A DNA stretch of 64,000 bases from Octopus sinensis (lineage: Eukaryota), in NCBI RefSeq assembly GCF_006345805.1, contig NC_043006.1:44578001-44642000 (forward strand), read 5' to 3'. The notes under the pieces are model-generated. The model was not told the DNA's origin and ran no database searches. It saw only the letters and a program-made list of their open reading frames with translations. The stretch's first letter is position 1, and every line of letters begins with the position of its first letter. A program made the position numbers and the translations under genes. Below are positions 394 to 49,500 of the stretch, piece after piece.

Positions 394-471
394 CCCCTTC
401 TTCAGTTGTCCCTGTTTCATCTACTCCACGTTACGAAGGCAAGGACAATATGCGACTTCGTTGAAAAAGTC
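394..471 (-). ncRNA. Hammerhead-like motif, rearranged topology, copy 1 (GAAA decayed to GUAA, triplet AUA)
   Basis: Minus: TCGCA-TA-TTGTCCTTG-CCTTC-GTAA-CGTGG-agtagatgaaa-CAGGGACAA-CTGAAGA-AGGGG. Confidence 0.55.
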
Positions 472-1139
472 CTATCCACAAATCAAATTAAATAAAATTT
501 GGGATTTTTGCGGAGGGTAAAAGTGGTAACAGGAACAGGATAGTGAGAACAAAACAGTAAAAAACAAACAGTGTGGGTTGTTAAGCCAATATGCTACAAA
601 AATTATTATGAACGCTAGGAAGACGAGCTTATGAGAGGAGACAATATAAGCATGTGTTGTCTTTAGGAAGGTAATGGACAGAAAGATAGATTCTCTTTTG
701 TCACGTGTCAGCGATGAGAGAGTCAAGGAGGAGGAGTGAGAGAGAGGGAATGGTGAAGAGGAGAGGAGAAGAATAGGGAAGGGTGGGAGAGAAAACCAGA
801 AAGGATGTAGAACAAGAGAGGGAGAGAGATAGACAGAGAACATATAGTAGAGATAGAAGAGTGCGCATCGTAATTATTAAGATAAAACTTACTTGGAAAA
901 GGATGCGTGGTGTACGATCATATGACAATATAAATAATATATAAATATATGCATATATACATACATATATGTACATACATATATATATATGTATATATAC
1001 ATGCATATATGGGTACAGGACATCAAAAAAACGTTGAACACAATGAGAAACGAAAACGTGAAAACAAAAACATAGAAATGAACTTTTTTTTTGAACAGCG
1101 AAAAAACAGAGAAACGAGAAATGCAACATAAAGAATATT

Positions 1140-46500: not shown

Positions 46501-49500
46501 AATGACTGTGGTCCTGTTTTTGATTGTGTTGTATTCCATGATGGAGAGACGTGGAGGTAAATATATTTTCTCACCAATTAATAAAAATCTTAATGTTGAT
46601 GATAATAGTAACTTGTGTTAATCATTGTACTGAAGGAGATATTTCTGTGAGCATTTCTTTTATTAGAAATTATAAGAGGGCAAGTGGAATTGGTACTGTG
46701 TCACTTTTGTCTGCTTAATCCTGTAAAATCTAAGTTAAGGTTTTGGTCCTTAAAAGTTTCTTGTTTTATTGTTTTACATTTATTTTAATGGGTGGGTGAG
46801 TTTTCAAAATTAGGGTAATTGCATATCATTGGATGAAATATGTTTTTGAAATTGGGTGTTTTTATTACTGCTGATCATTGGAATGGATAGAAATCTGTTG
46901 GTAGTTTGGCAATTAAAGTAAGGGTACTTACATTACCAAGAATCACAACACAATAGCTTTAGTAAATACAGTTCCATATTTAAGAGATGAGGAATTATGT
47001 ACATTATTTACATTTGACAGATATTTGTCCTCATCTTGTTGTTAACACACCGTTTCAGCTGATATACTCTCCAGCCTTCATCAGGTGTCTTATCCACTAT
47101 GCCATATACCTAAGGGCGGGCATATAGCATATCGATTAAGAGCGTGGGCTACTAACCCCAAGATTCTGAGTTCAATTCCAGGCAGTGACCTGAATAATAA
47201 TAATAATAATAATAACATCGAAAAATACCTTAGGAAATAGAACCCTAGTTCGAAATTTCCCCAAGACACCTGATGAAGGCTGGAGGGTATATCAGCCGAA
47301 ACGTTGTGTTAACAACTAACAAGATGAGGACAAATATCCGTAAAAAGTAAATAATGTAAATAAGTTTTAGTAAAATTTGATCTTATGATAGTATGGTTGT
47401 TAGGTTGACATCTTGATCTCATATGTTGTGACTGATGTAGCTATAGCGTGTTCAGTTATTGTGAGCTTACGTGATGCACAGTGAGCATAGTATTGTGTGC
47501 TTACATTAACAGAACTAGCCAACACATTCTAATTATCATCATTAAACATGTTAATCACCATGGCCTGTTACTGGAACTTAATGGTGATGTTGCGTATTTT
47601 ATATAGTCACATTACATACTTTTTAATTACAAGGAAATATAATTTGTTTTGCATTTTTACAATATTTCATAATTGAACTTTGATATTTCACTTTCATCAT
47701 CATCGTTTAACGTCCGTTCTCCATGCTAGCATGGGTTGGACGGTTCGGCCGGGGATCTGGGAAGCCAGAAGGCTGCACCAGGCTCCAGTCTTATCTGGCA
47801 ATGTTTCTACAGCTGGATGCCCTTCCTAACGCCAACCACTCCGTGAGTGTAGTGGGTGCCTTTTATTTGAATATCCTCAAAAGCCAGTCAAAGATACAGA
47901 ATAAAATATTTTCTCAAATTATGAAAATGTTTCTCTGGTGGTGCATATGGTGGTTGTGTGAGGTTTGCAATGAGCTACCAACGGTACATGTGGCAGTTAA
48001 TGTGTTAATGTCCACTTGTCCATGCTTAAATGGATCAAATGAAATTTGTGTGTGTGTTTCTGCATATCTTTGTCTTGACATCACGTGATGGTTGTATACG
48101 GGGATCACCATCTTACAAGTGATATTGTTCATTTCTAGTCTTCCAAAGAAAACATGTCTTGTCATGGGGAAAGATTACCTTGCTTGGAAACCAGTAAAAG
48201 GCTGGCAACAGGAAAGGCATCTAACTATAGGTAATCTGCCTCAATAAACTCCAGCTGACACCTGCAAGCATGGAAAAGGAGACATTAAAACAAAGTTGAA
48301 GCAGCTGCACTTCTCTTAAGCGTGATGGTGATGGAGGATGTCCTGTGGTTAACCCTTTGTAGTGTTTCCTGAGCCTTTTCTTGCCAAGATGTAGCATGGC
48401 TTTTGTTTCAGTTCAAAATATATTCTCTTCAATTTCAGGGCCTGTATTGATACAAGTGAGAAAGGCCAACTAGATCAGTGTGAGCTATTGGCTAGTTACC
48501 GAGAAGAACGGAAATTTGCTCGATTAAGTTACGCAGGTAGATTGTCCCATCTTGTAATTTCTTTTCCGTAACAACTACGACTGACTCTTAATTTTTTAAA
48601 TGTTAATTTTTGTTTTTAAATGTTATTTTTTTCTGTTCTTTTTATTGTTTTTATTCATTTTCTTACAGCTTTATGAGAAAGGGAGTTTTTCTGTATTGAA
48701 GATTATAGGAATAACAACATAATTAAGAAAGATGTTGGATTGTTAATATTTTAAGTTTTTTGAGATATCTTAATACATCATCATCATCATTTAACGTCCG
48801 CTTTCAATGCTAGCATGGGTTGGACGATTTGACTGAGGTCTGGCGAACCAGATTCCAGTCTGATCTGGCAGAGTTTCTACAGCTGGATGCCCTTCCTAAC
48901 ACCAACCATTCTGAGAGTGTAGTGGGTACTTTTATGTGCCACTGGCACGAGGGCCAGTTTGGTGGTACTGGCAACGGCCACACTCAAATGGTGCTTTTTA
49001 TGTGTCACCTGCACAGGAGCCAGTCCAGCGGCACTGGCGATGACCTCGCTCAAATGTTTTTTTTTCATGTGCCACCAGCAGAAGTGCTAGTAAGGTGACA
49101 CAGGTAACGATCACGCTCGAATGGTTTATTTAATGTGCCATCGGCACGAAGGCCAGCTTGTTGCTCTGGCAACGATCTCACTCGTATGGTACTCTTAGCG
49201 CTCCACTAGCAATGGATGCCAGTCACCGAGTTTGATTTCAATTTCACATGCCTCGACAGGTTTTCGCAATCGAGTTTGATTCCGACTTCGATTTCACTTT
49301 CCTCAACTGGTCTTTGCAAATAATGGTTAAGATGTAAAAGAACTCATTATCATTTAACATCCACTTTTCTATGTTCACATGGGTATGGGTTAGGTGGAAT
49401 TTATTGAGACAGGTTTTCTACAGCCAGATGCCCATTCTTTTGCTAGCCCTCGCTTGTTTCAAGGCAGGGTAATATTTTCCCATGGCTAGTCATACTTTTT

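Follow-up and report, generated by a model that had tools for sequence, protein, structure and literature searches.

Hammerhead cassettes in and beside the TPP2 gene of Octopus sinensis: probable stubs of Penelope-like elements and a tentative tRNA-headed unit

Why does one octopus gene stand amid eight hammerhead-like motifs, and do these motifs belong together? The question is raised by a stretch of 64,000 nucleotides of the Octopus sinensis genome (RefSeq assembly GCF_006345805.1, contig NC_043006.1, positions 44,578,001 to 44,642,000 of the forward strand; the whole stretch is referred to as the window), in which hammerhead cassettes had been reported at 0.4/1.2, 3.25, 4.6, 23.9, 28.6, 36.8, 40.2 and 47.3 kb and interpreted as a window-wide system. 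The window is instead best read as a sample of genomic debris of Penelope-like elements (PLEs) and not as a coordinated system; the cassettes are probably independent insertions, i.e., 5'-truncated 3' ends (pseudo-long-terminal repeats, pLTRs) of several PLE families or non-coding derivatives thereof. The host gene is TPP2, of which 14 coding blocks were located on the plus strand between 11462 and 63681 by tblastn with the Octopus vulgaris protein; its 67-aa exon at 43193–43393 is 100 % identical to O. vulgaris tripeptidyl-peptidase 2-like and 91 % to Argonauta (4 matches among 29 candidates). The window is AT-rich (36.6 % GC) with microsatellites throughout. The 0.4/1.2, 3.25 and 4.6 kb cassettes are located 5' of the first coding exon, that at 23.9 kb inside coding intron 1, those at 28.6, 36.8 and 40.2 kb all within coding intron 2, and that at 47.3 kb in the intron following coding block 4.

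How many of the eight are hammerheads? A type I descriptor comprising the core, GAAA, stems I and II and a palindromic helix III was applied to the window and to 200 block-wise dinucleotide shuffles of it as control. Canonical cores (CUGANGA) passed on the plus strand at 23908, 28593 and 47270, i.e., three against a shuffle mean of 0.03 (maximum 1; 0/200 reaching three). Allowing variant cores added 3254 on the plus strand (CCGACGA, U4C) and 4638 on the minus strand (GUGAGCA, a G3:C8 swap), giving five against a mean of 0.30 (maximum 3; 0/200 reaching five), a figure somewhat flattered by a variant-core list and helix III range that were fixed with the motifs already known. The comparison with dinucleotide-shuffled DNA, suggested beforehand as a check, is thus far exceeded by the real motifs, and it supports their assignment to Penelope-type minimal hammerheads. 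A first descriptor with eight cores and a longer minimum helix III did not catch the 47.3 kb motif; it yielded two strict matches against 0.12 and four variant matches against 1.43 in shuffles, with shuffle means of 0.01 and 0.23 if a palindrome was demanded. Helix III (15.1–16.1) is palindromic in 5/5 passing motifs, which the final descriptor demanded, but the first descriptor did not, and its matches were palindromic all the same (4/4).

Thus, the letters are present at all eight coordinates, but only five motifs pass as hammerheads and three are doubtful or partial. The same division applies to the seven type I cassettes said to carry a (near-)palindromic stem III of their own: five pass the type I descriptor, but the 36.8 kb motif is decayed and that at 40.2 kb consists of a 3' half only. 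The stem III reported as AACGUU at 47.3 kb has to be corrected, as the real helix III (A15.1–U16.1) is ACGU and the longer string takes in A14 and H17. The motifs are as follows:

394 to 460, minus strand: hammerhead-like halves in type II order (GAAG..UA, 9-bp hairpin, CUGAAGA), failing at A15.1, helix III and stem II
1140 to 1206, minus strand: second copy of the 0.4 kb unit (389-bp direct repeat, 89 %)
3243 to 3296, plus strand: type I minimal hammerhead with U4C core CCGACGA, 2-bp stem II, helix III ACUCUGAGU and GUA triplet, a TA tract lying 118 nt downstream
4595 to 4645, minus strand: hammerhead with G3:C8 core GUGAGCA, damaged stem II, helix III AAUAUU and 7-bp stem I
23903 to 23947, plus strand: type I hammerhead with CUGAAGA, U10.1.U11.1 followed by a 4-bp stem II, AGUACU and CUA, sense in TPP2 coding intron 1
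28588 to 28701, plus strand: type I hammerhead with CUGAAGA, 85-nt stem-loop II, helix III ACAGCUGU and GUC, sense in TPP2 coding intron 2
36779 to 36825, minus strand: decayed candidate with UUUAAAA core, no stem II, AUGAUCAU and 6-bp stem I, a TA tract lying 118 nt downstream
40232 to 40210, minus strand: 3' half hammerhead only (GAAA-ACACGUGU-GUC-stem I', no CUGANGA), in the 40.2 kb spacer
47265 to 47310, plus strand: minimal hammerhead with CUGAUGA, extra A, 6-bp stem II, ACGU, GUU and 5-bp stem I, on the sense strand of TPP2 in the intron that follows coding block 4, the unit ending near 47363

The fine structure varies among the motifs. An extra nucleotide after A9 and G10.1–C11.1 occur together at 47.3 and 4.67 kb; elsewhere, positions 10.1/11.1 are G-C without the extra nucleotide (28.6 kb), U.U (23.9 kb) or A-U (3.25 kb). 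According to passages of PMC3088659, U4C and U10.1.U11.1 are known natural hammerhead variants, and parts of PMC11167929 report that a C3G/G8C double change restores cutting in part in a lizard PLE ribozyme. Passages of PMC4209133 (Cervera and de la Pena 2014) characterize PLE minimal hammerheads by palindromic 15.2–16.2, an extra nucleotide after A9, G10.1–C11.1 and a short stem I, and describe opposite-strand pairs 100–700 bp apart, extreme variety per genome and mostly solo occurrence; the 4.6, 28.6 and 47.3 kb motifs display traits named there. The likeness to these metazoan pLTR ribozymes extends to type I topology with a short or absent palindromic helix III, and to many divergent families per genome that are mostly solo or in opposite-strand pairs. 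In contrast, helix III of the octopus motifs is often 6–9 nt long, one loop II comprises 85 nt, no PLE open reading frame (ORF) is linked in the window, and G3:C8 and U4C cores occur, where the passages name U3-A8 only and do not name octopus.

The three remaining motifs fare less well. Those at 0.4/1.2 kb represent one unit, duplicated as a partial tandem (self-BLAST). Its halves in type II order are uncommon by chance (matched in 10/300 shuffles); type II status was nevertheless rejected on account of a G at 15.1 in 2/2 copies, an unpaired helix III and the missing stem II next to the core, the nearest stem II partner lying 17 nt away from A9, on the far side of a small hairpin. The 36.8 kb core UUUAAAA is one change away from the U3:A8 variant and not significant alone, with two matches of a loose descriptor against 0.42, a level matched by 15/200 shuffles. 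Half motifs of 8 nt like that at 40.2 kb are common by chance (5 versus 2.9, maximum 8 in shuffles) and were rejected as stand-alone evidence (32 rows listed). As separate observations, an 8-nt palindrome, GAAUAUUC, is present in the hairpin directly after CUGAAGA of the 0.4/1.2 kb unit (381–398 and 1127–1144, both minus strand), through which dimers might conceivably make contact outside helix III, and broken ORFs resembling a DNA transposase, with no Pfam match, lie directly 5' of the 3.25 kb hammerhead (1500–3240, plus strand).

How did the cassettes reach their sites? That five of them reside in inverted repeats, as initially noted, was confirmed at 4.6, 23.9, 28.6, 40.2 and 47.3 kb, and the arms contain further hammerhead copies beyond those first noticed (a full one at 47084 and a half at 28168, both minus strand, and a second arm at 4675, plus strand):

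4536 to 4799, both strands: head-to-head inverted repeat, 108/114 identical, adjoining (TA)12, with hammerhead stem I starting both arms
4668 to 4718, plus strand: the other 4.6 kb arm (motif at 4675) with G3:C8 core, 5-bp stem II and G12A
23742 to 24087, both strands: inverted repeat, 130/132, bounded by TA on both sides, with the antisense arm starting 1 nt past the predicted scissile bond
27965 to 28888, both strands: inverted repeat, 202/204, with the left arm abutting a long TA tract and an AT-rich 420-nt spacer
28168 to 28146, minus strand: half hammerhead in the left arm of the 28.6 kb inverted repeat
40040 to 40379, both strands: inverted repeat, 114/119, with TA-rich ends
46995 to 47109, minus strand: inverted arm of the 47.3 kb cassette with a hammerhead copy (47089–47044), its 3' end matching the right arm at 90/97

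The arms of the five hairpins are unequal copies of one 3' end, 93–99 % identical over aligned columns. In 4/5 hairpins the inner arm end coincides with a ribozyme edge, namely with stem I at 4.6 and 47.3 kb, with a point 1 nt past the scissile bond at 23.9 kb and with one 5 nt ahead of GAAA at 28.6 kb; the 40.2 kb arm, in contrast, begins some 50 nt downstream of the cleavage site. At their outer ends the arms diverge, and tail and flank are separable there only with a consensus (30–40-bp one-end tail). An inverted, 5'-truncated copy at the 5' junction is present in 5/8 cassettes. The other six of 11 local inverted repeats were rejected as hammerhead cassettes; the two pairs examined look like opposed ordinary repeats. 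Passages of PMC8557442 (Craig et al. 2021) describe endonuclease-positive (EN+) PLE insertions by just these features, viz. a truncated 5' end, a likewise truncated copy in inverse orientation at the 5' junction, and (TA)n or microsatellite targets (Neptune, Naiad); since inverted arms and (TA)n ends match this published signature, the cassettes are read as PLE insertions. They differ from the EN+ units in having no ORF for clade assignment. Naiads are unlikely parents, and a Naiad origin was rejected, as Naiads lack canonical hammerheads and occur in cephalopods as remnants.

A course of events consistent with these observations can be proposed. Each family would carry a minimal type I hammerhead 60–190 nt from its 3' end, the motifs being observed and their family status presumed. 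The PLE endonuclease would nick DNA that is AT-rich or consists of (TA)n, and the element would be reverse transcribed from its 3' end; adjacency to TA is seen here, and the mechanism is taken from the literature. Synthesis would often halt or switch at the ribozyme and leave a second, shorter inverted copy at the 5' junction, which may account for the observed arm ends and results in a hairpin. In the parent RNA, according to the literature, two copies would pair via the palindromic helix III to cut, and any family would then be self-selective merely because palindromes pair with themselves.

TA targets and inverted ends also suit Tc1/mariner-derived miniature inverted-repeat transposable elements (MITEs), and the hairpins could in principle be MITE-like DNA elements or fold-back scars whose hammerhead appearance arose by chance in AT-rich DNA. 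The frequency of half motifs in shuffled sequence and the negative Rfam result (see below) agree with that explanation, but complete motifs exceed 200/200 shuffles, and the arms, instead of flanking a core as terminal repeats, are unequal copies of a single 3' end, truncated on the 5' side and ending inwards at the ribozyme. For the cassettes as a whole it is therefore very unlikely; it may apply to those at 36.8 and 0.4/1.2 kb.

The PLE assignment draws further support from position statistics. As originally stated, the cassettes are mostly at TA microsatellites: (TA)6 or longer occurs within 250 nt downstream at 6/8 loci (7/12 motif positions) versus 10 % background (p 2.5e-5), and near 4/5 passing loci (p 0.0005–0.006), the 40.2 kb cassette reaching a TA tract solely through its other arm; 4/5 descriptor-passing loci are inside local inverted repeats, which make up 13.6 % of the window (p 0.0015). 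Both statistics are partly circular, the motifs having been picked by the earlier reader in such contexts, and this is the first of several points that weigh against a PLE origin. The 47.3 kb cassette has no TA tract within 250 nt downstream and thus no TA target, and its tRNA-like head (see below) is likewise unlike a plain pLTR. Three of the eight motifs fail or are partial. Rfam reported neither a hammerhead nor a tRNA among 73 matches at E ≤ 5 in the window, its miRNA matches only mirroring hairpins and TA runs; that Rfam misses PLE minimal hammerheads here is useful for repeat annotation and not surprising. The expected association with Penelope reverse transcriptase (RT) or GIY-YIG elements was not borne out locally, as Pfam found these domains in 0/201 ORFs of at least 38 aa near the cassettes, so that the assignment rests on architecture and not on homology. 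The only matches in these ORFs were a Tc1-like DDE fragment and two weak ones ascribed to chance, and the 15 long ORFs of the window only LINE-type (long interspersed element) RT/endonuclease remnants and the TPP2 S8 domain. Absence of an RT/GIY-YIG ORF is expected of truncated stubs, and the cassettes are classed not as complete PLEs but as stubs or derivatives of them. Finally, no second locus of any cassette was found in the collections scanned (metagenomes, viral contigs, prokaryote genomes): all 9/9 loci from the metagenome pattern scan were unrelated, with no likeness beyond the 21–25-nt pattern, and pattern scans gave 0 and 0 matches in viral contigs and 0 in prokaryote genomes. Among the sequencing-run matches listed, 20/24 contain part of 280–4250 and none is an RNA run.

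The absence of coding sequence near the cassettes (201 ORFs) would also be explained if they were monomeric offspring of non-LTR retrozymes, i.e., of non-coding units in tandem that hammerheads cut and that multiply via circles, rather than direct pLTR debris. Retrozymes occur in mussels (PMC7229834), and for the dispersed monomers of retrozymes in general descent from PLE pLTRs has been proposed (10.64898/2026.07.22.740005); the 0.4/1.2 kb unit forms a partial tandem, and short non-coding units with type I hammerheads and a link to PLEs are common to both. Yet nowhere in the window do tandem units each carry a complete hammerhead, the octopus ribozymes are minimal and not canonical, and inverted 5' arms and TA ends indicate PLE-type integration; moreover, the two explanations merge if the preprint is correct. 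A retrozyme origin distinct from pLTR debris is accordingly considered improbable.

Do eight stubs in one window call for a special explanation? The cassettes total about 3.4 kb, equivalent to 5.3 % of the window with boundaries that are the author's estimates, and passages of PMC13282606 give 6.83 % PLEs in 190 families for the genome of O. vulgaris, of which the window's host may be a close relative; both qualifications belong to the points against the PLE assignment listed above. The same passages date a peak of O. vulgaris PLEs to about 56 million years and count 31 families as recently active, and Penelope is among the abundant coleoid repeat families in the portion of PMC8967140 considered. 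Self-BLAST of the window confirmed that the cassettes have no flanking sequence in common, and if 190 families were equally common, eight random draws would all differ with p 0.86. Hence eight unrelated stubs in 64 kb are about average, density and unrelatedness fit the genomic PLE load, and the notion of a window-wide system is not borne out. Very many genomic copies, as had been anticipated, are plausible: 3–5 per 64 kb correspond to 130,000–220,000 per 2.8 Gb (Poisson range 27,000–510,000, based on one selected window). By comparison, about 9,000 minimal motifs are given for Xenopus tropicalis in passages of PMC4209133, up to 120,000 type I hammerheads for axolotl (PMC7229834) and 235 Rfam hammerheads for giant squid (PMC6962438). 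Octopus would thereby join the animals rich in PLE hammerheads, perhaps at numbers near the highest in the reports considered.

Are the different palindromes a code? Dimer action of minimal hammerheads via helix III is described in passages of PMC4209133 and PMC6765202, and duplex energies were calculated for the octopus motifs, which may cleave themselves as dimers. The self-duplex is stronger than the cross-duplexes for 6/7 palindromes, the exception being ACGU, which binds ACACGUGU (-2.7 kcal/mol) more strongly than it binds itself (-1.7 kcal/mol). A set of three 6-mers and three 8-mers would contain no duplicates by chance with p 0.78, so that the data hold no evidence of a code, and the suggestion that distinct palindromes serve self-recognition has only geometry behind it. 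A literature search on heterodimer specificity of hammerheads found no relevant paper.

What, then, do the intronic cassettes do in TPP2? The relevant exons, located by tblastn, are:

11462 to 11635, plus strand: TPP2 first coding exon
25010 to 25147, 43193 to 43393, 46432 to 46557, 48434 to 48556, and on to 63681, plus strand: further TPP2 exons

Three intact cores had been described as sense to TPP2 introns, and the canonical cores at 23.9, 28.6 and 47.3 kb are indeed on the gene strand. On this strand an antisense arm precedes each sense ribozyme. In minimum free energy (MFE) folds, the arm pairs with 5/45 ribozyme nucleotides at 23.9 kb, which form the entire 3' strand of stem I, with 21/115 at 28.6 kb (GAAA through stem I) and with 46/48 at 47.3 kb. 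The MFEs of the three cassettes (-184, -423 and -172 kcal/mol, respectively) compare with -6, -46 and -14 kcal/mol for the local ribozyme folds, as equilibrium values that leave out folding during transcription. The full antisense copy at 47084 in the 47.3 kb arm has U16.1 changed to G. The antisense arm would be transcribed first and pair with the 3' part of the ribozyme, leaving the hairpins as passive long double-stranded RNA (dsRNA); the three sense cores are thus probably inert in TPP2 pre-mRNA, blocked by their own arms. Neither can they complement each other, since they carry different palindromes.

The prediction that the hairpins supply intronic dsRNA agrees with folding, which predicts uninterrupted helices of 87, 178, 44 and 34 bp for the four hairpins in TPP2 introns. 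These hairpins are likely substrates for ADAR editing, given that passages of PMC5625713 link very high hyper-editing in octopus to long dsRNA and name Penelope as a heavily edited repeat in a lizard. If true, such an antisense lock would explain why a conserved gene tolerates sense hammerheads in its introns, and it would identify one source of the long dsRNA that underlies hyper-editing in octopus. Independently of the hammerheads, opposed copies of ordinary repeats in TPP2 introns add dsRNA potential (18283–19441, 48116–49531, 51872–52986). Long tandem arrays of 22–26-bp GA/TC-rich units surround the 28.6 kb cassette (25446–26185, 26972–27879, 29110–29946); the first is opposed to the other two, with which it could form long imperfect duplexes.

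A stronger proposal holds that the family palindromes are a selected recognition code and that the intronic cassettes act on TPP2 by cleavage or as dsRNA. It can appeal to the preference of 6/7 palindromes for themselves, to three canonical sense cores with no intact antisense core in TPP2 introns, and to the high hyper-editing of octopus just cited. However, all-distinct palindromes are expected, the 3 versus 0 orientation is not significant, the sense cores are unable to pair mutually and predicted to be blocked by their own arms, and cassette density equals the genome PLE average. Furthermore, according to parts of PMC11167929, cleavage by a PLE hammerhead from a lizard required the PLE protein, and the site of this hammerhead yielded no RNA ends. 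Selection for a code or a role in TPP2 is thus highly improbable, and the cassettes are further treated as PLE debris.

Is the 47.3 kb cassette debris of the same kind? Upstream of its ribozyme, the following feature was recognized:

47118 to 47190, plus strand: putative tRNA-derived head with A-box-like sequence, anticodon-like hairpin and B box at tRNA spacing, then (AAT)n and about 60 nt

A pattern of tRNA invariants, composed after the sequence had been inspected, has a single match in the window, at this head, and any match in 2/200 shuffles. The chance of an A/B-box pair within 200 nt upstream of a given site is about 0.003, and no T4 terminator is present from the head to the unit end, the first TTTT being at 47365. 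The inverted arm starts with a match to the first 22 nt of the head (16/22) and proceeds via AAGA microhomology into the hammerhead; this level is reached at only 3/127,956 window positions, two of which are arm and head themselves. As the start of the head is joined to the hammerhead in the arm, head and ribozyme were apparently on one template when the inversion formed. No tRNA was called in the head by ARAGORN, Rfam or blastn against phage records (Rfam: no hammerhead or tRNA among 8 matches in 46950–47400 and 0 matches in 47108–47200; blastn: two 21-nt chance matches only). Worn SINE (short interspersed element) heads commonly escape tRNA callers. The head occurs at one locus in the window and has only a 14-nt match to other SINE heads there.

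On this evidence, the 47.1–47.36 kb unit could be a copy of a SINE family that combines a tRNA-derived RNA polymerase III (Pol III) head with a PLE-derived hammerhead end and is moved by PLE proteins and not by a LINE. The tRNA spacing, the A/B-box pair, the lack of a T4 run in the unit and the arm junction argue for it; with one locus a one-off fusion is possible, the callers are negative, the invariant pattern is post hoc, and the arm matches less well in the head (73 %) than in the tail (93 %). Such a family is a real possibility, if on balance somewhat unlikely. Still more tentative is the combined proposal of an octopus SINE family with tRNA Pol III head and Penelope-type hammerhead, inserted by PLEs, whose inverted arm would act as an antisense lock that lets hammerhead stubs, on the order of 100,000 in number, sit in introns as long dsRNA for editing; the arm ends would mark the points at which the ribozyme stopped or cut the template. 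If a family, the unit would extend the concept of SINEs to partnership with PLEs and provide a short, testable template for PLE proteins.

Neither a PLE-partnered SINE nor an octopus hammerhead family was found in the literature searched, among the matches listed. Octopus reportedly has tRNA-derived SINEs (Ohshima and Okada in 1994, to go by the title), which would have the tRNA-derived head in common with the 47.1 kb unit. Short non-autonomous Penelope elements are mentioned in passages of PMC6685494 that contain no tRNA link. The unit also resembles the SINE-like elements Sm-alpha/Sj-alpha of Schistosoma, in which, according to passages of PMC6765202, a Pol III-type promoter is likewise followed by a hammerhead; these are tandem repeats with efficient cleavage in cis or trans, whereas the octopus unit is single and combines a minimal ribozyme of PLE type with an inverted 5' arm like that of PLEs.

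Other repeats in the window comprise a decayed LINE with remnants of apurinic/apyrimidinic (AP) endonuclease and RT regions in TPP2 intron 2 (33146–35728, plus strand), LINE-type RT fragments at 6279–7243 (minus strand; RVT_1 at 6923–7243, E 4.5e-9) and 14610–14987 (plus strand), and a Tc1/mariner-like transposase remnant at 37690–38700 (minus strand; DDE_3, E 2.4e-5). Fragments at 43599–44024 (minus strand) and 45244–45597, with no match in Pfam, resemble what we take to be the restriction-like endonuclease end of an R4/Dong-type element. A common repeat with internal 63–66-bp tandem units recurs at 36328–36516, 48930–49156 and 54435–54584.

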